The notes beneath the pieces are model-generated. The model was not told where the DNA came from and searched no databases. It saw nothing but the letters and a program-made list of their open reading frames with translations. The position numbers and the translations under genes are program-made. From a virus (lineage: Duplodnaviria; Heunggongvirae; Uroviricota; Caudoviricetes): 37,432 nucleotides of DNA. Below are positions 1 to 36,732 of the stretch, one piece after another; positions within the stretch are counted from its first letter, which is position 1, and each line of letters begins with the position of its first letter. The DNA lies in IMG/VR virus record IMGVR_UViG_2724679140_000013, one strand, 5' to 3'.

Positions 1-1002
1 TTACCCTCTATTGTCAAAAGGGTTCAATTCAACAGCAGCCTCTAAATGACCTGGAGCAAAATGCGCATAACGCATAGTCATTTTTATATCGCTATGCCCC
101 AGTATTTTTTGCAACACAAGAATATTTCCGCCCCGCATCATAAAATGACTGGCAAACGTGTGACGTAGCACATGAGTTAATTGCCCATCAGGAAGCTCGA
201 TCTTCGCTCTCTTAATTGCAGCGTCAAAAGCCTCATAACATGGTGAAAATAGCGCTCCTCGTTTTTTAGGAAGCATAGCCTGCAATTGAGGTGAAATCGG
301 TACAGTGCGGTTCTTCTTTCCTTTAGTTTTGACAAATGTGATTCGACCGGGCAGTACTTGAGATTGTTTTAATCCTTCTGCTTCACTCCACCGAGCACCA
401 GTCGCAAGCCCAATACGAACAACAACCCCCAAATCTTTATTCCGTGACTCATCACACGCAATCAGAAGGCGTTCAATCTCATCTACATACAGAAACGCCA
501 GTTCCTTTTCTTCCTCACGAAACTTGCGAATACCAGTCAGGGGGTTTTCACCAGACCACTCTCCAAGGCGCTTCAGTTCGGCAAAAACAGCATGTAGATA
601 TGACTGCTCACGATTAACAGTTGCTTCACTAAGTTTCTTCTTCCCCTTTGGATTCCATTCACCTGATAATCGCCGCTCCCTGTAGGTGGCAAACATATTT
701 TTATCAAATTGAGAAGCAAACGGATCACCTAACCTAGAACAAATCGCCTCGAGTTTAGCCCTTCGCTCTTCACCGGAAGACAGTGTTTTACCGTACATAT
801 CAAACCAGCGAGCAACCAACTCGGAAAGGTGGGGGCCAGAATCATCCTGAAACTCGCTCCCCAAATTACTATTCATTAAACGGCGCTCATAAGAGAGCGC
901 CTCACCCTTAGTCGCAAACTGTTTACGAATACGCTTTCCCGATGCTCCATACGGGTAACACTCGCAAAGCCATTTACCAGTAGGTAGTCTTCGAACACTC
1001 AT
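1..1002 (-). CDS. int: Tyrosine recombinase / phage integrase
   Basis: 333 aa; catalytic signature ATGARWSE, HVLRHTFASHF, LGHSDIKMTMRYAH (R, HxxR, Y); first gene at the prophage left end as in P2. Confidence 0.9.
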   Translation of the reverse strand: MSVRRLPTGKWLCECYPYGASGKRIRKQFATKGEALSYERRLMNSNLGSEFQDDSGPHLSELVARWFDMYGKTLSSGEERRAKLEAICSRLGDPFASQFDKNMFATYRERRLSGEWNPKGKKKLSEATVNREQSYLHAVFAELKRLGEWSGENPLTGIRKFREEEKELAFLYVDEIERLLIACDESRNKDLGVVVRIGLATGARWSEAEGLKQSQVLPGRITFVKTKGKKNRTVPISPQLQAMLPKKRGALFSPCYEAFDAAIKRAKIELPDGQLTHVLRHTFASHFMMRGGNILVLQKILGHSDIKMTMRYAHFAPGHLEAAVELNPFDNRG

Positions 1003-1425: not shown

Positions 1426-2073
1426 TTACACAAAATAAATTAAAAATGTAATCACCATACCCAAAATGAGTCCAACAATGAACACAATCAAAAATTCTTT
1501 AGTATATTCTGTTAATAGTTCACTAATGCAGTGTCTATTTTTAATATTGCCATTGCTCTGAGATATATTTTTATTAGTCTGCTGATCTAACCACGACAAT
1601 GCAGATTGCAACTGAGAACGAGTAAGATCGTTTAAACGGCCTGTACCGAAATTGATATGGCAATATCGAAGAAGTTTTTGTCTAATTTCATTACTTTCAC
1701 TGTTGCGAAGAAGGAGGCTTACAAGTAATTTACAGGCGTCATGATCCTTGTGTCGGTCAAGCATCGCATTGAGAAAGCTAATTGCGGTTGGATACTGATT
1801 CACCGTCATCTTATCGACACTATCAACACCGATTTCAGCATGAAGTTTACGCCAAACAACAAACGATTCTTCCTTGCTGGCATCAACAATCTTGTCAACC
1901 AACAACTTCAGTTGATGTCGCTGAGCCTTAACTAATGGGCGCTCATCAGGCCTACCAGAAGGGATTGCAATATTGACTGTATGCCGATCATCATATCGCT
2001 CTATCTGAATATTCTTTTCGTGGTAATCACGCCCAGCAACGCGATTGTCTGAACCGTTTGAGTTGACCGCCAT
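1426..2073 (-). CDS. Hypothetical tail-anchored membrane protein (215 aa), AT-rich moron
   Basis: Strong SD GGGAGGTG just upstream; single C-terminal TM FLIVFIVGLILGMVITFLIYFV; N-terminus carries RVAGRDYHE, which matches the repressor C-terminus. Confidence 0.65.
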   Translation of the reverse strand: MAVNSNGSDNRVAGRDYHEKNIQIERYDDRHTVNIAIPSGRPDERPLVKAQRHQLKLLVDKIVDASKEESFVVWRKLHAEIGVDSVDKMTVNQYPTAISFLNAMLDRHKDHDACKLLVSLLLRNSESNEIRQKLLRYCHINFGTGRLNDLTRSQLQSALSWLDQQTNKNISQSNGNIKNRHCISELLTEYTKEFLIVFIVGLILGMVITFLIYFV

Positions 2074-2091
2074 GTCACCTCCCTGCTAGAG

Positions 2092-2505
2092 CTAACCCTT
2101 AGTTTCGTTATAGTCACGACCAGCAATACGATGGCCCTTGCCAGAAGCTCTTATTGTACCTGGAGCCAAACTACCAGCGGTCAAGGCTGCCAAAGCCGCC
2201 GCCTTAACAGCCAAAGGTGCAGAGCGATATATTTTAATTAGCTCAATCTCATCTTCAGTGGCATTAGGGATGCCATGTGCACGACTACCAGAAAGTATGT
2301 AATAGACATCTACTCCGCAGCGCCTTCCCAAGAGATTCAGCATAGCTGCATCCGGTGTAGTCACCCCTCTTTCATACTTCCCCCAAGTCTTTGTAGAAAC
2401 TTCAAAAATAGACGCCATATCATCCTGAGTCATGCCAGTTTTCTCTCGTTCCTCCCGTAATCGACGTCCAATAATGACACTTAATTCCTCTTTTTCTGTT
2501 GACAT
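2092..2505 (-). CDS. XRE-family helix-turn-helix immunity repressor (CI/C analogue)
   Basis: 137 aa; HTH region GMTQDDMASIFEVSTKTWGKYERG; divergent from the early operon, position equivalent to P2 C / 186 cI. Confidence 0.8.
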   Translation of the reverse strand: MSTEKEELSVIIGRRLREEREKTGMTQDDMASIFEVSTKTWGKYERGVTTPDAAMLNLLGRRCGVDVYYILSGSRAHGIPNATEDEIELIKIYRSAPLAVKAAALAALTAGSLAPGTIRASGKGHRIAGRDYNETKG

Positions 2506-2527: not shown

Positions 2528-2543
2528 AATTTCACGTGCAATT
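2528..2543. promoter_or_regulatory. Near-palindromic candidate operator in the 59-bp divergent switch region
   Basis: AATTTCACGTGCAATT (one mismatch from a perfect dyad, centred on CACGTG), between the repressor and the first early gene. Confidence 0.3.
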
Positions 2544-2564
2544 AGATGATCACAATGTACCACT

Positions 2565-2771
2565 ATGAATCAAGTTAGTCACGACACCAAGTCACGCATT
2601 CCGCGTAATACCGCCACAGGTCCAAGACTGGCACTTAGGCTGTCCCTCGAGGAGCGAGCCATCATTGATGAAATGGCCGCCAAAGAACAACGCTCATCCT
2701 CTAACATGGCGCGCATGATCTTCCTTCGAGGCCTGGAGCTGACCCAGAAAGAACAAAACAAATCTTCCTGA
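2565..2771 (+). CDS. Ribbon-helix-helix DNA-binding protein, first early gene (Cro/Apl-like role inferred)
   Basis: 68 aa; RHH-like RLALRLSLEERAIIDEMAAKEQRSSSNMARMIFLRGLE; divergent from the repressor. Confidence 0.6.
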   Translation: MNQVSHDTKSRIPRNTATGPRLALRLSLEERAIIDEMAAKEQRSSSNMARMIFLRGLELTQKEQNKSS

Positions 2772-2787
2772 TCAGGAGGTTAGTGGG

Positions 2788-2991
2788 ATGTCAGGTATAA
2801 CCATCAATATCAATGTGAATGCCCCCTATGTATCCCTGCAGAAATATGCAGAGATAACAGGTATCCCTCTTAATACATGCAAAAAGATGTTGGCTGACGG
2901 TCGAATTATTATCCGACCAAAACGCGCCAAAATGGAAAAGCCAGAAGTAAACCTTGTGGCAATGCTGAAAGACGCTATCGCTAACAGTTAA
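2788..2991 (+). CDS. cox: Cox-like regulator/excisionase
   Basis: 67 aa; SD AGGAGG; pattern YVSLQKYAEITGIPLNTCKKMLADGRI resembles the P2 Cox HTH region; position after the switch. Confidence 0.55.
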   Translation: MSGITININVNAPYVSLQKYAEITGIPLNTCKKMLADGRIIIRPKRAKMEKPEVNLVAMLKDAIANS

Positions 2992-2997
2992 AACAAC

Positions 2998-3360
2998 ATG
3001 AGCATCGCTATGAATAGAAATGCCACCTCCTCACGTTCTAAATACCGCAACGGGGCGGAACGCCATGCTAACCGTTTCGCTACCAGTGCATCACGCAGCA
3101 GCTCTCGCTACAGCCTGAGCGAAACACACGCAACACCGGATGGCCACGCTGTAAAACAAATCGGCGAGCATGCCTGGCTGATTGAGAAAGCTGGAATCGT
3201 GGTCCATAAATGCCCACGCAATCCGTTTACCGGAAACCGCATTTTTGCATTGAGCTGCGGCGACAATCAATTCGGGCAGGATTTCACATTATACGAAGCA
3301 CTTCGTACGGTTGATCGTCTGCTTCGCGGGCAAAGTTTTATTAAACAGGCTGATTTATAA
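2998..3360 (+). CDS. Hypothetical early protein (120 aa)
   Basis: ORF in the early operon; Ser/Arg-rich N-terminus; no clear SD. Confidence 0.45.
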   Translation: MSIAMNRNATSSRSKYRNGAERHANRFATSASRSSSRYSLSETHATPDGHAVKQIGEHAWLIEKAGIVVHKCPRNPFTGNRIFALSCGDNQFGQDFTLYEALRTVDRLLRGQSFIKQADL

Positions 3361-3370
3361 CAGGTGAGTT

Positions 3371-3658
3371 ATGACCAAAGAGCATACACAAAGTGTATTT
3401 ATCCGTTTTATTGATTTTCGCGGTGAACTGTTATTACGCGCATCCGCTATTGATGGAGTGGCTCCGGCGGGTAAAAACGGAGCCGACGAAGCCACTTACG
3501 TTTATCTGAACGGCACGCGACTGCTTGTGGAACTTCCGTACCAGACCGTACGAGAAATCATTAGTGGAGCTGAAAAGGCACGCCAGGCTAATGGCGATGA
3601 ACCTTATATCGAAATTATTTGTATGGATTCAGAAGCAGAAATTCAGAAAGCAGATTAA
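3371..3658 (+). CDS. Hypothetical early protein (95 aa)
   Basis: SD AGGTGA upstream; tightly packed in the early operon. Confidence 0.6.
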   Translation: MTKEHTQSVFIRFIDFRGELLLRASAIDGVAPAGKNGADEATYVYLNGTRLLVELPYQTVREIISGAEKARQANGDEPYIEIICMDSEAEIQKAD

Positions 3659-3669
3659 AGGGCGTTGCG

Positions 3670-3912
3670 ATGGGCAAAGAATATAAAACTCTCATTAACA
3701 AAGCACTTGAGCGTTTTTATTTTCGCTTAAGTGCATCAGGCGCTCATGCTGAACGTGCAGCCCGTGACTCATTGACCAGGGCAATCCGGAGTCTGTATGA
3801 CGTGGCTTTTTACGCTGATGATCTGGATGCACTTAACGAACTTTCCGAGCTGATCTGTGCCGCAGAATGCGGGGAACATATTGAACCGTATAAGCTGGGG
3901 AATATTGCATGA
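3670..3912 (+). CDS. Hypothetical early protein (80 aa)
   Basis: Start chosen at MGKEYK (ATG 3670, AAAGGG upstream) rather than the 3619 ORF start, which overlaps the previous gene. Confidence 0.5.
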   Translation: MGKEYKTLINKALERFYFRLSASGAHAERAARDSLTRAIRSLYDVAFYADDLDALNELSELICAAECGEHIEPYKLGNIA

Positions 3913-4861: not shown

Positions 4862-5065
4862 ATGAACAAAAAGACCTGGTTTCGCGCATACATGTGGGCG
4901 CTGGTATGCGTCCTCGTTTCTCTCATTCTGTATGCAGGACTACTCCCCCGAATGATTTCATCAGACAGCTCCTTCTTGGTATTGCTGGGCATTTTCATTG
5001 CCATGCTGTACCCGGCAGGCGTTGTTCGCCTTTTCAGTAAGTACATCAAGGAAATCAAACAATGA
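4862..5065 (+). CDS. Small two-TM membrane protein coupled to the SPFH gene
   Basis: 67 aa; two hydrophobic helices (WALVCVLVSLILYAGLL, FLVLLGIFIAMLYPAGVV); ATGA overlap with the next gene. Confidence 0.6.
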   Translation: MNKKTWFRAYMWALVCVLVSLILYAGLLPRMISSDSSFLVLLGIFIAMLYPAGVVRLFSKYIKEIKQ

Positions 5066-5892
5066 AGAAACTCAAACTCTTTCAGATTATCCCGCTTTTT
5101 GCCGCCATCCTGCTGGTTGGTTGCGATCGCGTTGAGCCAGGTAATGTGGGCATCAAAGTCAACAAACTGGGCGACGACAAAGGCGTCGGTGAAGTGGTTG
5201 GCGTTGGCCGCTACTGGACAGGCTGGAATACAGAGGTTTACATCTTCCCGACCTTCAAACAAATGAAGACCTACGATGAGCCGTTCAGCTTTCAGATGAG
5301 TGACGGCACAACCATCGGCTATCACATCGGTGTGGCCTACAAGGTTGATCCATCCAAAGTTACTACAGTGTTTCAGACCTACCGCAAAGGCGTGGACGAC
5401 ATTACCGACACTGACCTGCGCCAGAAGATCGCCGATGCACTCAACCGACTGGCCAGCAAAATGACCACCGATAAATTCATCGACGGTGGCAAGTCTGAAC
5501 TGCTGGATTCAGCACTTAAAGATATTCAGGAAGAGATGACCCCCATCGGTATTCAGGTCATGAGCCTCTCTTATGTCGGTAAACCGGAATATCCGCCAAC
5601 CGTTATCGACAGCATTAACGCCAAAGTCACGGCAAACCAGAAAACCCTGCAACGCGAACAGGAAGTCAAGCAACGCGAAGCAGAAGCCAACATGTTGCGC
5701 GCAGAAGCTGCCGGACAGGCTGATGCCATTCGCACAAAAGCCCAGGCTGAAGCCGACGCCATTCGTTTACGCGGTGAAGCTCTGCGCCAGAATCCCGGCG
5801 TTATGGAGCTGGAAGCAATCAACAAATGGAACGGCACGCTGCCGCAATACATGACCAGCAATACCGCTGTTCCGTTTGTTCCGGTGAAGTAA
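5062..5892 (+). CDS. SPFH/band-7 (prohibitin/flotillin-like) lipoprotein
   Basis: 276 aa; lipobox LLVGC; SPFH core followed by an Ala/Glu/Arg-rich coiled coil (QREQEVKQREAEANMLRAEAAGQADAIRTKAQAEADAIRLRGEA). Confidence 0.85.
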   Translation: MKKLKLFQIIPLFAAILLVGCDRVEPGNVGIKVNKLGDDKGVGEVVGVGRYWTGWNTEVYIFPTFKQMKTYDEPFSFQMSDGTTIGYHIGVAYKVDPSKVTTVFQTYRKGVDDITDTDLRQKIADALNRLASKMTTDKFIDGGKSELLDSALKDIQEEMTPIGIQVMSLSYVGKPEYPPTVIDSINAKVTANQKTLQREQEVKQREAEANMLRAEAAGQADAIRTKAQAEADAIRLRGEALRQNPGVMELEAINKWNGTLPQYMTSNTAVPFVPVK

Positions 5893-5898
5893 TTAAAC

Positions 5899-5923
5899 CC
5901 GGCCAGTGAAAATCGCTGGCCGG
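5899..5923 (+). terminator. Stem-loop after the SPFH gene (possible terminator)
   Basis: CCGGCCAG-N9-CTGGCCGG; the T-run is displaced (5937-5942), so efficiency is uncertain. Confidence 0.35.
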
Positions 5924-5969
5924 AGCAGTATCAGGATTTTTTAGTATGCCGTTCTCACAAAAAAACCGC

Positions 5970-5999
5970 TTGCCATGCCGCAATCAGTCAGGTTACATT
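5970..5999 (+). promoter_or_regulatory. Candidate sigma-70 promoter reading into the a1b1/c4-like region
   Basis: TTGCCA-N18-TACATT; sequence inspection only. Confidence 0.3.
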
Positions 6000-6030
6000 T
6001 CCGCTGCACCTCATAAAACGGGTGCCGGGA

Positions 6031-6054
6031 TTGGAACCCCGCAGACTAACAGAG
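6031..6054 (+). promoter_or_regulatory. Upstream antisense-RNA target pair (a1b1-like)
   Basis: TTGGAAC (6031-6037) and CTAACAGAG (6046-6054) are exact complements of GTTCCAA (6175-6181) and CTCTGTTAG (6160-6168). Confidence 0.5.
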
Positions 6055-6059
6055 CGCAC

Positions 6060-6080
6060 AACCGCGCCAGCGGTTTTTTT
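6060..6080 (+). terminator. Intrinsic terminator directly after a1b1
   Basis: AACCGC-GCCA-GCGGTT followed by a T7 run. Confidence 0.55.
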
Positions 6081-6121
6081 GTGCGTACCGTATCGCCACG
6101 TCTTTTTCGCGTCAAAATTAT

Positions 6122-6200
6122 GGTGGGGCGTACAGGGCCAGCATCAGCTGGGCCGGGTCCTCTGTTAGCCGGTAGTTCCAACCCTGTACGTCTCACCACC
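6122..6200 (+). ncRNA. Candidate c4 / CI-type antisense immunity RNA
   Basis: 16-bp closing stem GGTGGGGCGTACAGGG / CCCTGTACGTCTCACC (two G-U pairs) enclosing hairpins CCAGC-ATCA-GCTGG and GCCGG-loop-CCGGT; the loop carries CCTCTGTTAG (b') and the adjacent single strand carries GTTCCAA (a'); ACC tail after the stem. Confidence 0.55.
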
Positions 6201-6231
6201 CCGAGCTTGGAACCTCTGGATGGTGAGTTTT
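6192..6231 (+). terminator. Terminator/attenuator hairpin overlapping the 3' arm of the c4-like stem
   Basis: CTCACCA (6192-6198) pairs with TGGTGAG (6221-6227), followed by TTTT; mutually exclusive with the 6122-6197 stem; the a2 site lies in its loop. Confidence 0.4.
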
Positions 6232-6252
6232 CAAAACTGACTAACAGAGAGG
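6207..6252 (+). promoter_or_regulatory. Downstream antisense-RNA target pair (a2b2-like) overlapping the SD of the 75-aa ORF
   Basis: TTGGAAC (6207-6213) and CTAACAGAG (6241-6249); SD GAGAGG at 6247-6252, ATG at 6260. Confidence 0.5.
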
Positions 6253-6259
6253 CCACACC

Positions 6260-6487
6260 ATGGCAAACCGCAAACAGCGCGCATACGCTGCGCGTCGTCA
6301 CATCCAGACTGAAATCGACCGCAGACTTTCCCGCGCATTCCGCGTCGCTAAAATCATGCACATCAACATGCTGCATGAGCGTAGCTGCGAACTTTCAAAC
6401 CTCTACTCATCCGCTGTTTTCAGCTATCTGGCGGATGATCTGCGCGAGCTTCAACAGCTCATCCAGCAGCAAAACAAACTCCATTAA
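6260..6487 (+). CDS. Hypothetical 75-aa protein; position analogous to P1 icd
   Basis: SD GAGAGG 7 nt upstream; basic N-terminus, helical C-terminus; first ORF after the a2b2 site. Confidence 0.6.
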   Translation: MANRKQRAYAARRHIQTEIDRRLSRAFRVAKIMHINMLHERSCELSNLYSSAVFSYLADDLRELQQLIQQQNKLH

Positions 6488-6559
6488 TTCCTGTTCCGGG
6501 CCTTTCCTGCACCTTGCGGCGGGAGGCCTTCGCACATCTGTAACAAGAGGATTGCCGCA

Positions 6560-6925
6560 ATGATTCTCGCCAACGACTTTCTTGAATACCTGCTCAACAC
6601 AGAACGTGATCTTGCCGCTCGCGTGCGTGATCGTTATGACATGTACCTGAAATCCCTGCCTGTACCGCAACTCGCTGACGGAAAAATTGTTATTGATGGT
6701 CGCTACATGATTGACAGCCACGAGGGAAATTACAGGCTTTACCGCATTGAAGGTGGCACCCCGTCCGTTATTGGCATTTACCAGCGCCCATCCTCTGCAA
6801 TCGTCGATGTGATTGCCGACAGCATCCGCATCACACATCGCCATGCCGACACAGAAGACACCGTGCTGGAAATTCAGCGGCTGGCTGCCGTCTGCCGCGA
6901 CACCCTGAATGGCATGACGAAGTAA
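6560..6925 (+). CDS. Hypothetical 121-aa protein upstream of A
   Basis: SD AGAGGA; ends 6 nt before gene A. Confidence 0.6.
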   Translation: MILANDFLEYLLNTERDLAARVRDRYDMYLKSLPVPQLADGKIVIDGRYMIDSHEGNYRLYRIEGGTPSVIGIYQRPSSAIVDVIADSIRITHRHADTEDTVLEIQRLAAVCRDTLNGMTK

Positions 6926-6931
6926 ATCACT

Positions 6932-9754
6932 ATGACGGCAGAGTACATCAGGGACTGGCAACAGCCGCGCCACGCAGTGGGACGTGAAGGAACGGGGATC
7001 CCCGTTCCTGAATCCGCGCTTTCCTCCTGGCTGGATGCCTACCGGGCAGAGAACGAGCGCCGCCAGGAAATGGCTGATGCGGCGTTCTCCGCCACGCCGC
7101 TGGGCAACCTGATTAATAAAAGCCTGGATGCACAGGAAAAACAGGACAAAACCATCACACTGGCAGGAGACGCCAGAAAACAGGTACGCGGTGCGGTGGA
7201 TGAAGCCATGGCCTCGCTGCGCCTGCTGCCGTCCTATCTGCGCGATCCGCTTATTCGCCACCTCTCCTTCCTGCGCAAAAAACAGGAAGCCGATCGCCGG
7301 AAAGGCAAAAAGAGCTGGCAGGCTGAACGCTACGCGCGCGGAACCCTGCGCAAAATATTCGAACGTCTGGACCGCACCGACCACCGCTGGCTGACACCGG
7401 GTTATCGCTCCCTTGCCGGACGCGAACGCCTGGATGATTTGCTTTACCTGCCGCAGCTCAACAAGCACCAGATACAGACGCTGGCCACCATGACGGCGGC
7501 GATGTTCAGCAGCACCTTCGAAAAACTCTGCGATGGCTTTGGCGCGACTGATGGCGAGCTGACCATGGAGGTAACGCTGAAGGCGTATCAGATGCTGGCC
7601 CGCATGGCGTTACACCTGCACGCCATGCCTCCGCATTATGACGCACTGACAACAGACAAAGACCGGAGGAACGAACCGGACACGGAGTTGCTGCCGGGCG
7701 CAATCCTTCGCCTGACCTGTGCGGAATGGTGGAAACGCAAACTGTGGCTGTTACGTTGCGAGTGGCGGGAAGAACAACTCCGCGCCGCCTGTCTGGTTTC
7801 CAGAAAAACATCGCCCTATCTGAGCCAGGACGCGTTAAGCGAGTTTCGAGCACAGCGCGAGAAAACACGCGATTTCCTGAAAAGTTTCATGCTGGAAAAC
7901 GAAGACGGGTTCACGATTGATCTCGAGACGGTGTATTACGCGGGAGTAAGTAATCCGGTTCATCGTAAGGCAGAAATGATGGCCACCATGAAGGGGCTGG
8001 AACTTCTGGCCGAAGCCCGTGGCGACAAAGCGGTGTTTCTGACTGTCACCTGCCCGTCAAAATACCACGCCACAACAGAGAACGGTCATCCGAATCCCAA
8101 ATGGAACGGGGCCACCATGCGCGACTCCAGCGATTACCTGGTTAACACGTTTTTTGCGGCGGTCCGCAAGAAACTGAACCGCGACGGCCTGCGCTGGTAT
8201 GGCATCCGCACGGTGGAGCCTCACCATGACGGCACCGTGCACTGGCATATGATGGTCTTTGCTCATCCGGAAGAAATCGACACCATTGTGTCCCACACCC
8301 GCGATATTGCCATTCAGGAAGATCGTCACGAGCTGGGTGATGATATTACCCCACGCTTTAAGGCGGAGTACGTCGACGGCTCAAAAGGCACACCGACCAG
8401 CTACATCGCCACCTACATCGGGAAAAACCTGGACAGCCGTGCCGTGGATGGCATCGACCCGAAAACGGGCAAGCCACGCGTTGACCACGAAACCGGAAAA
8501 TCAATGGCCGAGAGCGTGGAACGCGCCATCGGCTGGGCGCGCCTTCACCGGGTCCGCCAGTTCCAGTTCTTTGGTATCCCCTCCCGTCAGGTGTGGCGTG
8601 AACTGCGCCGCCTTGCCAGCCAGATGGCTCGCAACCCGGAAGGACCGCAACGGCTGAAGGATGACGCAATGGACGCGGTTCTTGCTTCCGCTGATGCCGG
8701 ATGTTTTGCCACCTACATAGAGAAACAGGGCGGCGTACTTGTTCCACGCAAGGACTACCTGATTCGCACCGCCTACGACCTCGCAGATGAGCTGAACGAT
8801 TACGGTGAACAGAGCGTACAGATTTACGGGATCTGGTCACCGCTCATCGGGGAGTCTTCCCGCGTATGCACGCATCCGGACAACTGGAAGCTGGTAAGAC
8901 GCAAACCGGAAGCGGAAGACAGCGCCCGCGAAAATGGTTTTGACCTTCAGGGCGGCCCTGCCGCCCCTTGGACTCGTGGCAATAACTGTCCCCGTATACA
9001 GGAAACGGGCAACAACGGGACAGAACAGCCGGAAGAACGGCCAGCACCGTGGCCGCAGCTTCCTGACGGCGTTGACGTGAATGAATGGATGCGCTCACTG
9101 AAACGGCACGAACACCGGGCGCTGATGCGTTCGCTGCGTGACAAACAGGCAAAAAACAGCAGTGATGAAATGCAGAACTGGACACAGAGCCGCAAACAGC
9201 CACAGCCTTTGCCTGATAACCACGAGTTACTCGCTAAAGAATGGCGGGAGTCTGCTGAATCTCTCGGCCTGCATATCGGTGAACAGCAGATGCAGCACCT
9301 GTTACGGGGCGGCAGTCTGTACGTTGACGGCAGCATCATTGCACCGCAGGGATTTGAAATTGTACGCAAACCGGATACCCGCCCGGACAGCCGAATCACG
9401 CAGCTCTGGCAGCGCCTGAGCCGTAACCACGGCGTAAGCAGCACGGAGATCCGCCATAACCCGGTCGCCAGCTATCTGGAACAGCTGGGGGCATCAGACC
9501 CCGAAGCCGCCGCACGCCTGGCATCCACACTTCAGCAAGACCAGAACACCATGAAAACACCCGTTACCGTGCTTTCTGACATGCTGCGCGCCATCCGCGA
9601 CGCAGAGCACGCACAGAGAATCAGTGAAACCACTGAACGCGCCCGCCGCAAAGCAGACCTGCTGCGGGGTGGCCTGACCAGTGGAAACAAAAAACAGACA
9701 GAAACGGGATTCACAAATCCCGTAAATGAGCAAAAAACGCGCCGCGATATATGA
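6932..9754 (+). CDS. A: Rolling-circle replication initiation endonuclease (P2 gpA family), with a long C-terminal extension
   Basis: 940 aa; HUH-type motif HHDGTVHWHMMVF and paired-tyrosine motif SYIATYIGKN as in P2 A. Confidence 0.9.
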   Translation: MTAEYIRDWQQPRHAVGREGTGIPVPESALSSWLDAYRAENERRQEMADAAFSATPLGNLINKSLDAQEKQDKTITLAGDARKQVRGAVDEAMASLRLLPSYLRDPLIRHLSFLRKKQEADRRKGKKSWQAERYARGTLRKIFERLDRTDHRWLTPGYRSLAGRERLDDLLYLPQLNKHQIQTLATMTAAMFSSTFEKLCDGFGATDGELTMEVTLKAYQMLARMALHLHAMPPHYDALTTDKDRRNEPDTELLPGAILRLTCAEWWKRKLWLLRCEWREEQLRAACLVSRKTSPYLSQDALSEFRAQREKTRDFLKSFMLENEDGFTIDLETVYYAGVSNPVHRKAEMMATMKGLELLAEARGDKAVFLTVTCPSKYHATTENGHPNPKWNGATMRDSSDYLVNTFFAAVRKKLNRDGLRWYGIRTVEPHHDGTVHWHMMVFAHPEEIDTIVSHTRDIAIQEDRHELGDDITPRFKAEYVDGSKGTPTSYIATYIGKNLDSRAVDGIDPKTGKPRVDHETGKSMAESVERAIGWARLHRVRQFQFFGIPSRQVWRELRRLASQMARNPEGPQRLKDDAMDAVLASADAGCFATYIEKQGGVLVPRKDYLIRTAYDLADELNDYGEQSVQIYGIWSPLIGESSRVCTHPDNWKLVRRKPEAEDSARENGFDLQGGPAAPWTRGNNCPRIQETGNNGTEQPEERPAPWPQLPDGVDVNEWMRSLKRHEHRALMRSLRDKQAKNSSDEMQNWTQSRKQPQPLPDNHELLAKEWRESAESLGLHIGEQQMQHLLRGGSLYVDGSIIAPQGFEIVRKPDTRPDSRITQLWQRLSRNHGVSSTEIRHNPVASYLEQLGASDPEAAARLASTLQQDQNTMKTPVTVLSDMLRAIRDAEHAQRISETTERARRKADLLRGGLTSGNKKQTETGFTNPVNEQKTRRDI

Positions 9755-9830: not shown

Positions 9831-10790
9831 ATGAAAATTTGTATCGATGACGGCTCCACCAACATCAAGCTGGCATGGACTGAGAACGGCGAACGCCGCA
9901 ACGCCATCAGCCCGAACAGCTTCAAGTCGGAATGGTCTGCGCCGTTCGGTGGAACGCAGCCCGCAAACTACATGCTTGATGGCGTGCGCTATGGTTTTGA
10001 TCCGGTCAGCGATCGCTTTGTCCAGACGACCGACACGCAATACCAGTACAGCGATGTGAATGTCATTGCCATTCATCACGCGCTGGTCAAATCAGGCATC
10101 ACACCACAGGAAGTGGATGTGGTTGTCACCCTGCCACTGAGCGAATATTTCGACACCAACGCACAGCCGGACATGGCCAACATCAACCGCAAAAAAGCAA
10201 ACGTCATGCGCCCGGTGGCGTACCAGAACGGAAAAGCATTCACTATCCGTAACGTACGGGTTATGCCTGAATCCATTCCGGCTGGTTTTAAAGCACTGGC
10301 TGACATGAGTCCGTTTGAATCCCTGCTGATTGTGGATTTAGGCGGAACCACGCTGGATGTGGCAAAGGTTCAGGGACAACTGGCAGGTATCAGCCAGGTG
10401 TTTTGCGATCCACACGTAGGCGTTTCCCTGATGGCCGATGCCGTACTGTCGGTGATGGCCACTAACGGTATGCGTACCAGTCACCACATCGCCAATACCA
10501 TTATCGAACATCGCCATGATGAAGCCTGGCTGCGCCAGCACATCCACAATGACGCGCATTACGCCAGCCTGATGGCGGTTATTCGTGAAAAGGAAGAAAC
10601 ACTGAAACAACGCGTGATCCGCGCGCTGGCGGGTTTTTCGGGTTACGGGCGGGTGATGGTTGTCGGTGGAGGGGCGGAGATTGTGGCACCCGCTATCCGC
10701 GAAGCCTGCGGAGTTAATGCGACTTTCATCGCGGACGGGGTGCCACAGTTTGCTCTGGTTAACGGGCTGTACGCAATGGACAAGGAGTAA
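9831..10790 (+). CDS. parM: Actin-like plasmid segregation ATPase ParM/StbA
   Basis: 319 aa; collinear with plasmid R1 ParM as I recall it (MKICIDDGSTNIKLAW, ISPNSFKSEW, YQYSDVNVIAIHHAL, VMPESIPAG, LIVDLGGTTLDV, VMVVGGGAE). Confidence 0.9.
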   Translation: MKICIDDGSTNIKLAWTENGERRNAISPNSFKSEWSAPFGGTQPANYMLDGVRYGFDPVSDRFVQTTDTQYQYSDVNVIAIHHALVKSGITPQEVDVVVTLPLSEYFDTNAQPDMANINRKKANVMRPVAYQNGKAFTIRNVRVMPESIPAGFKALADMSPFESLLIVDLGGTTLDVAKVQGQLAGISQVFCDPHVGVSLMADAVLSVMATNGMRTSHHIANTIIEHRHDEAWLRQHIHNDAHYASLMAVIREKEETLKQRVIRALAGFSGYGRVMVVGGGAEIVAPAIREACGVNATFIADGVPQFALVNGLYAMDKE

Positions 10791-36429: not shown

Positions 36430-36516
36430 TGGTACCCGGAGCGGGACTTGAACCCGCACAGCGCGAACGCCGAGGGATTTTAAATCCCTTGTGTCTACCG
36501 ATTCCACCATCCGGGC
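36430..36516 (-). tRNA. leuZ: tRNA-Leu (anticodon UAA)
   Basis: 87-nt reverse complement GCCCGGATGGTGGAATCGGTAGACACAAGGGATTTAAAATCCC...GGGTACCA; cloverleaf with long variable arm and encoded CCA. Confidence 0.95.
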
Positions 36517-36528
36517 TCGGGAAGAAAG

Positions 36529-36602
36529 TGGAGGCGCGTTCCGGAGTCGAACCGGACTAGACGGATTTGCAATCCGCTACATAACCGCTTTGTTAACGCG
36601 CC
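36529..36602 (-). tRNA. cysT: tRNA-Cys (anticodon GCA)
   Basis: 74-nt reverse complement GGCGCGTTAACAAAGCGGTTATGTAGCGGATTGCAAATCCGTC...CGCGCCTCCA. Confidence 0.95.
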
Positions 36603-36656
36603 AAATTCTTCAGGCCTTTCAGCCAGACATCCGCTTGACGCCGATGTCTTTTAAAC

Positions 36657-36732
<76 letters not shown>

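Follow-up and report, generated by a model that had tools for sequence, protein, structure and literature searches.

The early operon of a P2-like phage raises the question of whether short repeated boxes upstream of its replication gene belong to an antisense RNA that acts beside the protein repressor. The locus lies in IMG/VR virus record IMGVR_UViG_2724679140_000013, a 37,432-nucleotide (nt) stretch of DNA that is referred to here as the window. An earlier note on this DNA had proposed that the boxes form an immunity module of the type described for phages P1 (c4) and P4 (CI). The present analysis indicated, with a probability of roughly 0.85, that positions 5970-6252 constitute a self-contained C4/CI-family antisense-RNA cassette that silences a small open reading frame (ORF) related to the P4 protein epsilon, by the mechanism described below. 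Family membership, structure, three-way complementarity with covariation, overlap with the Shine-Dalgarno sequence (SD) and the epsilon homology of the controlled gene were all directly supported. The cassette is an unannotated instance of a known phage RNA switch, located in a new gene context.

The 9-mer CTAACAGAG occurs exactly three times in the window, at 6046-6054 and 6241-6249 on the plus strand and at 6160-6168 on the minus strand. The expected count was 0.10, and three copies were reached in none of 100 shuffles. The 7-mer TTGGAAC is also present in exactly three copies, at 6031-6037 and 6207-6213 on the plus strand and at 6175-6181 on the minus strand; its count alone was not unusual (5.7 expected), but its clustering was: all copies fall in a span of 183 nt and keep register with the 9-mers. 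The earlier note had located both repeats exactly and had rightly judged the triplication of the 9-mer improbable. In the transcript of the plus strand the boxes are arranged as follows.

6031-6037, plus strand: a1, UUGGAAC, in the loop of leader hairpin 2.
6046-6054, plus strand: b1, CUAACAGAG, single-stranded in the leader.
6160-6168, plus strand: b', CUCUGUUAG, in the 12-nt loop (6157-6168) of C4 hairpin 2.
6175-6181, plus strand: a', GUUCCAA, in the single-stranded junction of C4.
6207-6213, plus strand: a2 target box, UUGGAAC, 4 nt after the C4 match.
6241-6249, plus strand: b2 target box, CUAACAGAG, overlapping the SD GAGAGG (6247-6252).

The b' and a' boxes are exactly complementary, over 9 nt and 7 nt, to both flanking sites on the same strand, as is characteristic of C4 RNAs. 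The central element that carries them was identified with the Rfam models at their curated gathering thresholds.

6116-6203, plus strand: C4/CI-type antisense RNA (Rfam C4), with a predicted mature species of about 6121-6201.

The match to Rfam C4 (RF01695) scored 78.5 bits against a cutoff of 45 and covered model positions 1-87 of 87 (E = 6e-14), a positive outcome for the Infernal search that the earlier note had proposed. RNAfold of 6116-6203 gave a 17-bp closing stem (6121-6137 with 6182-6198), with two G-U pairs (6126-6193 and 6128-6191), enclosing hairpin 1 (6138-6151) and hairpin 2 (6152-6173) and followed by a 3' tail of ACC(C). The minimum free energy (MFE) was -47 kcal/mol (z = -5.18), equally stable folds were obtained in none of 200 shuffles, and both the MFE and the centroid structures were identical to the Rfam model structure of a stem, two hairpins and a junction. 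The fold previously drawn from the letters was thus reproduced, the 16 bp proposed for the stem being extended by one further U-A pair, with b' and a' in the 12-nt loop and the junction, respectively, and the ACC tail in place. The acceptor-like stem and the 3' ACCC tail are compatible with excision by RNase P and with a tRNA-like 3' RCC(A) tail.

The upstream boxes, a1 and b1, are located in a leader that is predicted to carry its own promoter and intrinsic terminator, like IsrK and P4 seqA, a feature absent from the earlier note.

5970-5999, plus strand: sigma-70 promoter of the cassette, with -35 TTGCCA (5970-5975), an 18-nt spacer, -10 TACATT (5994-5999) and a predicted start near G6006.
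6006-6080, plus strand: isrK-type leader small RNA (sRNA), the equivalent of P1 a1b1 and P4 seqA, identified by an Rfam isrK match and by its fold.

The promoter was the only promoter-like site within 5800-6600. In 16 P2-like loci both hexamers were kept, including those with a divergent spacer and upstream flank, and Gifsy-1, P1 and P4 have a promoter at the same position relative to the cassette. The leader matched Rfam isrK (RF01394) at 72.4 bits over 6006-6080 (cutoff 50), the model starting near the predicted transcription start. It folded into hairpin 1 (6006-6025) and hairpin 2 (6026-6041), and the predicted terminator consists of a hairpin at 6060-6075 and a U-run that extends to 6080. 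The c4-a1b1 model (RF03163), also suggested previously as a check, gave 20 bits at 5993-6045, below its cutoff of 46.7; in that form the expectation failed, and it was the isrK model that recognized the element. The isrK and c4-a1b1 models describe the same thing, namely the leader with a1 and b1, since they overlap on a single element in P1 and Gifsy-1.

The proposal of a C4/CI-type module inside a P2-like phage was further sustained by the matches of the same Rfam models to P1 c4/a1b1 and P4 CI/seqA, by the Phage_GPA protein encoded downstream and by the close relationship to phage P88 (Xuanwuvirus, Peduoviridae), which was about 90% identical over a 701-nt query (5900-6600) spanning the module. 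The same query was 100% identical to the mouse Escherichia coli strain M8. The Rfam scores of the related loci were:

P4 CI RNA/seqA: C4 74.9 bits, isrK 60.8 bits.
P1 c4/a1b1: C4 68.8 bits, isrK 35.1 bits (below cutoff), c4-a1b1 51 bits.
P88: C4 80.5 bits, isrK 63.6 bits.
Gifsy-1: C4 69 bits, isrK 79.3 bits, c4-a1b1 48.1 bits.

The pairing of the boxes was examined in a wider sample. IMG/VR viral contigs were scanned with a structure-shaped pattern, which returned about 120 loci with 127 C4 matches and 62 distinct (b' loop, a' junction) types; the pattern fixes ATGG, GCCGG/CCGGT and AACCC, so that invariance at these positions is by construction and more divergent C4 RNAs fall outside the sample. 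Nearly every one of the 62 types had its own complementary a1, b1, a2 and b2 boxes at fixed offsets. In a control carried out with 52 types, complementarity to the C4 RNA of the same locus was compared with that to C4 RNAs of foreign loci.

b1, at least 8 nt: own C4 63%, foreign C4 0.7%.
b2, at least 8 nt: own C4 79%, foreign C4 1.0%.
a1, at least 7 nt: own C4 92%, foreign C4 2.3%.
a2, at least 7 nt: own C4 100%, foreign C4 1.6%.

In the 16 P2-like loci the scaffold, comprising the -10 hexamer, hairpins, terminator, C4 stems, SD and start codon, was nearly invariant, while the six boxes changed together; all six differ between P88 and the window. Covariation was also seen within the fold, with two compensatory pair swaps in the first C4 hairpin of the window and, in an RNAalifold consensus of 64 sequences, double compensatory changes at 16 of the 27 pairs. 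Calculated duplex energies were -23 to -30 kcal/mol for cognate and -10 to -20 kcal/mol for non-cognate combinations, and the b'/b2 duplex of the window, which reaches over the SD, had an energy of -20.7 kcal/mol. The internal mismatches in otherwise complementary boxes comprised 26 G·U, no A·C and three others (binomial p = 3e-8, a value that overstates independence, as the 112 module sequences counted are mutually related). Such an imbalance is expected only for RNA-RNA pairing of plus-strand transcripts, indicating that selection acts on the RNA of the plus strand. Among the 127 C4 matches no (b', a') specificity, which might allow cross-immunity with satellites or lambdoids, was shared between P2-like phages and Rha- or Icd-class elements; the two had only a' types in common. 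Two or three C4 modules in tandem, spaced 656 bp apart, each with different a/b boxes and followed by a Rha-family gene, were observed in L028 (9708-11109, minus strand), L015 (4674-5422) and L078 (4802-5527), three viral contigs.

The boxes also vary independently of the protein repressor. Locus L056 has the C repressor (96%) and the integrase (97%) of the window, different boxes and an epsilon-like protein of only 88% identity, while L071 has the closest epsilon-like protein (94%) and a different type of C repressor. The RNA box code is consequently a specificity layer separate from the C repressor. The idea that the epsilon-like protein tracks the resident C repressor was rejected on the basis of the same two loci. 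At least 10 box types were found in the P2-like lineage.

The genes under the proposed control of the cassette form one transcription unit.

6260-6487, plus strand: 75-amino-acid (aa) ORF, homolog of P4 epsilon (helper derepression) by Pfam PF25738 and BLASTP, directly under b2 and the SD.
6560-6925, plus strand: orf121, 121 aa, of unknown function, in the same transcription unit and conserved in 8 P2-like loci.
6932-9754, plus strand: replication initiator gpA, 940 aa, Pfam Phage_GPA 439 bits, the distal gene of the unit.

The overlap of b2 with the SD of the 75-aa ORF, which starts at AUG 6260, was confirmed. The geometry is shared by the window, P88, P1 and P4: a2 begins 1-6 nt past the C4 match, and the distance from the end of b2 to the start codon is exactly 11 nt in each. 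The 75-aa protein was 33% identical to P4 epsilon over 51 aa (BLASTP, E = 6e-9), its identity across P2-like loci was 46-94%, and the RefSeq name of its gene is 'derepression protein'. Searches of Pfam and NCBIfam with orf121 gave no match, and its assignment as the counterpart of P4 orf151 was rejected, as the two had no similarity. No promoter or terminator signals were found between the 75-aa ORF and gpA (6400-7100), so that all transcripts reaching gpA must cross the cassette.

The proposed mechanism draws on homology to P1, P4 and Gifsy-1 for the processing by RNase P, for the block of translation and its polar effect on gpA, for the leader as a decoy and for the 75-aa protein as an antirepressor. 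The constitutive sigma-70 promoter would initiate near 6006, and the intrinsic terminator at 6060-6080 would stop most transcripts, producing an IsrK-like sRNA of about 75 nt with a1 in a hairpin loop and b1 single-stranded. The C4 precursor would be contained in read-through transcripts and in transcripts from the upstream early promoter, and RNase P probably cuts at the base of the tRNA-like closing stem to release C4 as a stable species of about 80 nt. The b' loop and a' junction of this RNA would pair with b2 and a2, so that the SD is covered and the epsilon-like ORF remains untranslated; polarity would then lower the expression of orf121 and replication gene A. The a1b1 leader would pair with the same C4 surfaces, in cis aiding the establishment of repression and in trans, when present in excess, titrating C4 and turning the operon on. 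Specificity would be encoded in the box sequences, which differ even between phages that are nearly identical in other respects. An immunity function, the repression of an antirepressor/replication operon in the lysogen, is likewise suggested by synteny and homology.

The immI region of P1/P7 (P51b promoter, a1 b1, c4 RNA, a2 b2, icd, ant) has the same order of promoter, a1, b1, C4, a2, b2 and ORF, and its RNA belongs to the same Rfam C4 family. In the P1 record, the promoter P1c4 is located at 48195-48223, a1 at 48255-48261, b1 at 48269-48276, c4 at 48343-48419, a2 at 48423-48429 and b2 at 48452-48459, and icd starts at 48470. P1 and the window have a similar a1-b1 spacing of 14-15 nt, a2 follows C4 at a distance of 1-4 nt, and in both, b2 overlaps the SD, 11 nt before the start of a small first ORF (73 aa in P1, 75 aa in the window). 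The box sequences would set specificity, as in P1/P7 heteroimmunity. Unlike P1, the first ORF of the window is epsilon-like rather than Icd-like and is followed not by Ant1/Ant2 but by orf121 and the rolling-circle initiator gpA, and the leader, for which a strong canonical terminator is predicted, scores better with isrK (72 bits) than with c4-a1b1 (20 bits). Moreover, the phage of the window is a P2-like integrating myovirus, whereas P1 is a plasmid prophage. In the sar/ant system (immI) of P22, a small antisense RNA limits antirepressor synthesis in the lysogen, but this is a functional analogy only. P22 sar is a true cis-antisense RNA from the opposite strand and is not known to have a C4-type fold, an a/b box triplication or an Rfam relationship.

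The immunity region of P4 (PLE, seqA, CI RNA, seqC, epsilon, orf151, cnr, alpha) shares with the window the a/b box logic, the 11-nt distance from b2 to the AUG and a Derepression-family (epsilon) protein followed by a replication gene downstream in the same operon. The order in P4 is seqA, CI, a2b2, a 65-aa Icd-like ORF, epsilon, orf151, cnr and alpha. In P4 it is the 65-aa Icd-like ORF that lies directly under b2, with epsilon next, whereas in the window the epsilon-like gene itself occupies that slot. The proteins differ in length (95 aa for P4 epsilon, 75 aa in the window), the replicase is alpha (primase-helicase) in P4 and gpA in the window, and the sequence of the window C4 scaffold is nearer to the lambdoid/Gifsy type than to that of P4. 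The P4 RefSeq record, NC_001609 (L122), has no CI RNA feature at 8168-8692 (minus strand) and keeps a 'cI gene product / transcriptional repressor' coding sequence (CDS) there; no annotation is given for the Icd-like ORF of 65 aa at about 8365-8168, in which b2 overlaps the SD.

The best match for the upstream element of the window was the isrK locus of Gifsy-1 (PisrK, IsrK, 'orf45'/STnc1160, anrP, isrJ), in which an isrK-type leader is followed by a C4-family RNA and then by a regulator whose SD abuts b2. Gifsy-1 is a lambdoid prophage and its payload is the antirepressor-like protein AnrP (STM2616), whereas that of the window is the epsilon-like protein and gpA. In Gifsy-1 the isrK promoter drives an operon that is transcribed but translationally silent (280 vs 4 Miller units), PisrK is required for a processed species of about 80 nt (STnc1160, orf45'), IsrK supplied in trans raised translation 139-fold, and IsrK was described by the authors as a structural homolog of P4 SeqA (PMC4825925). 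For this locus there is thus direct in vivo evidence of read-through as well as of processing, translational silence and activation in trans by the leader sRNA. When the Gifsy-1 numbering was mapped to the sequence, G28 and G31 were located in a1, C159 and C162 in a' and A107 in the AUG of the C4 5' stem, and the anrP SD followed b2. The IsrK pairs that were examined experimentally, G28-C162 and G31-C159, correspond exactly to a1:a', and 'orf45'/STnc1160 (L127, 34131-34316, minus strand) is a C4-family RNA (69 bits). Consequently, the Gifsy-1 data fit C4-type repression relieved by excess leader sRNA. An explicit link of 'orf45'/STnc1160 to C4 and to a1:a' pairing was not found in the searchable literature.

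Several observations weigh against silencing of an epsilon-like antirepressor by the cassette, 1) the match of the 75-aa protein to Pfam PF25738 (Derepression) is marginal, its 28.4 bits being just above the cutoff of 27, while P4 epsilon scores 170 bits, 2) there is a gap of 72 nt between the 75-aa ORF and orf121, and control of gpA by polarity is purely inferred, 3) there is no obvious co-evolution of the epsilon-like protein with the C repressor of its own phage, on which it may therefore not act, the missing co-variation with the resident C type being weak evidence against specificity for that repressor, 4) in Gifsy-1, mutations of a1 in cis derepress rather than hyper-repress (PMC4825925), so that the leader is not merely a decoy, and 5) the Gifsy-1 authors favour translation of orf45, which overlaps C4 and is coupled to anrP by an AUGA overlap (PMC4825925). 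In the window the frame of the C4 AUG is +2 relative to the ORF at 6260, neither in frame nor coupled, and the Gifsy-1 AUGA coupling has no counterpart. An alternative that retains the RNA module would make P4-like premature termination its main output, keeping gpA off in the lysogen, with the 75-aa ORF as a mere leader that has no antirepressor role. P4 immunity acts by CI-dependent termination (PMC4825925), P4 seqA and CI match the same models as the window, a terminator is predicted in the isrK/seqA-type leader, gpA is part of the unit and no promoter is seen in between, and the lack of co-variation with the C repressor also speaks for this alternative. However, the b2/SD overlap has the 11-nt geometry of P1 icd, where the translational block is the primary act, and the conserved 75-aa protein (46-94%) is homologous to a P4 protein with known antirepressor activity. 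Termination as the main output thus appears unlikely, although it deserves to be kept in view, and the two outputs are not mutually exclusive.

The remaining alternatives dispense with the antisense RNA altogether. One is that the region codes for a protein, the 'Ash family protein' of a 205-aa ORF at 5946-6563, and that the repeats are incidental to coding. This ORF does match Pfam PF10554 (Phage_ASH) at 27.5 bits (cutoff 26), RefSeq applies the label 'ash family protein' at this spot in many E. coli genomes, and in Gifsy-1 a tagged 'orf45' overlapping C4 was seen by western blot (PMC4825925). The PF10554 match (aa 17-108, nt 5994-6270), however, spans exactly the two RNAs and their targets, and in P4 the family matches the obsolete 'cI' ORF over the CI RNA (L122, 8168-8584, minus strand), not epsilon. 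Covariation preserves the base pairs and the box complementarity, with G·U mismatches outnumbering A·C by 26:0; in L025 the Ash frame would be shifted by the indels (+1 and -1) that flank C4; the frame from the C4 AUG closes within 28-46 aa in 9 of 52 types; no Ash CDS was called by RefSeq in the exact-match genome; and the Gifsy-1 authors noted that the nucleotide sequence was conserved and the amino-acid sequence was not (PMC4825925). The coding explanation was rejected on the covariation, the indels and the P4 control, and is regarded as highly improbable. Three copies of a short motif, one of them inverted, upstream of a replication gene do resemble an operator or iteron layout, and the 9-mers and 7-mers might be DNA sites for a binding protein rather than RNA pairing partners. 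DNA sites would tolerate transitions symmetrically, in contrast to the mismatches found here; the boxes occupy defined loops and junctions of a conserved RNA fold and are hypervariable (62 types) on a fixed scaffold; and no DNA-binding protein co-varies with them, as phages with the same C repressor have different boxes. The homologous elements of P1, P4 and Gifsy-1 are, moreover, experimentally RNA-based. The DNA-site explanation was rejected because the mismatches are skewed 26:0 and no protein co-varies with the boxes, and it retains next to no credence.

PF10554 itself appears to be the translation of the isrK/C4 RNA locus, and true P4 epsilon matches PF25738 only. A published survey of satellites related to P4 relied on PF10554 to mark epsilon (PMC8628076), and RefSeq derives the gene name 'ash family protein' from this family.

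The C4 cassette that is favoured here precedes a variety of genes. The main groups of first ORFs after b2 in the viral sample were the Rha family (18 types), Icd-like (13) and epsilon-like (8), and there were also singletons. This variation indicates that the RNA cassette is a portable switch placed before different payloads. In all epsilon-like cases gpA follows, and gpA was present in 15 loci. In L009 (about 1875-2300, plus strand) the first ORF under C4/b2 matched Pfam Tad2-like (Thoeris anti-defence) at 27.7 bits (cutoff 25), an indication that anti-defence genes, too, can be placed under C4 switches.

The canonical P2 and 186 genomes had no match at all when searched with Rfam, and the statement in the earlier note that an RNA layer is not part of the canonical P2/186 description therefore holds. 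P88-like phages carry the module, and the cassette joined to gpA was found in 870 of 5426 complete E. coli genomes (at least 80% coverage). In the exact-match genome RefSeq leaves a 367-nt gap over the cassette unannotated, while elsewhere an 'ash family protein' is called there. GenBank, too, either has no annotation for the cassette or mislabels it in this way. Literature searches on C4 RNA in P2-like phages, P88 and Xuanwuvirus found no description of the module. C4 antisense RNA and c4-a1b1 were listed in gamma-proteobacteria and phages by Weinberg 2010, and a 2025 review treated IsrK and c4 as unrelated. The novelty implied previously is accordingly confined to the unannotated P2-like instance; the kind of module was already well known and is widespread.

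Judged by its sequence, the window is an E. coli prophage of the P2-like type (Peduoviridae), with the P2-type order of int, C, cox-like gene, early genes and A. The features around the cassette and the controlled genes are listed below.

1-1002, minus strand: int, at the left end of the window.
Left part, between int and C, minus strand: orf215.
After orf215, minus strand: helix-turn-helix repressor C, 137 aa.
2499-2527: candidate early promoter, followed by a cox-like gene, early genes, the SPFH cargo gene and the RNA cassette.
5062-5892, plus strand: SPFH/Band-7 gene, directly upstream of the RNA cassette.
Downstream of the cassette: the 75-aa ORF, orf121, gpA, a ParM-like gene and P2-type morphogenesis genes.
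9831-10790, plus strand: ParM/StbA-type actin-like plasmid-segregation ATPase, just 3' of gpA (Pfam StbA_N 273 bits, ParM C-terminal 230 bits).
36433-36732, minus strand: three clustered tRNA genes, at the right end of the window.

The SPFH/Band-7 gene is variable cargo, present only in the window, P88, L017, L071 and L100, and homology on the left side of the cassette ends near 5958, some 10 nt before the -35 hexamer. The counterpart of the ParM/StbA gene is labelled 'recombinase' in the P88 record and is followed there by a 'chromosome partitioning protein'; the presence of such a gene in a P2-like prophage hints at a plasmid-like maintenance option. The tRNA cluster at the right end and the integrase at the left end probably mark the prophage/host junction region. 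In L128 (E. coli SK6988, 2533-3701) gpA is flagged as 'frameshifted' (pseudogene) by RefSeq in a prophage otherwise 100% identical, whereas gpA of the window is intact (940 aa). Phage P88 is mitomycin-inducible (PMC5285337). SOS control of the cassette through a LexA box was considered and rejected: the sole CTGT-N8-ACAG in the window, at 8986 within gpA, is compatible with a chance occurrence, and none was found near the cassette.

According to the survey of P4-like satellites, no P4-specific gene other than delta has clear homologues in P2-like phages (PMC8628076). Contrary to that statement, P2-like phages do carry members of the epsilon family (PF25738) as well as the seqA/CI module, which shows that helper-type P2-like phages and the satellite P4 have an RNA-immunity-plus-epsilon cassette in common. 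It is conceivable, though doubtful, that P88-type phages and P4 have one mobile RNA-immunity/epsilon unit, whose hypervariable boxes constitute a second code for heteroimmunity, one at the level of RNA with an assortment independent of the C repressor. If this were true, the mobile unit would be a second link between helper and satellite besides ogr/delta, and phages that share a C repressor but not their boxes, of which the window and L056 are an example, could use the epsilon-like protein to lift each other's repression, in the way that P7 derepresses P1. The exchange of boxes seen between phages that are 90% identical yields a clean and testable prediction of RNA-level heteroimmunity.

Three systems that were treated separately in the literature, P1 c4, P4 CI/seqA and Gifsy-1 IsrK/'orf45', are now linked, and the Gifsy-1 data can be re-read as C4-type repression that is lifted by a leader-derived decoy. 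With its function assigned by homology, the cassette bears on phage regulation and on the evolution of helpers and satellites, and represents a second, RNA-based regulatory layer in a very common lineage of E. coli prophages that is not part of textbook P2/186 biology.

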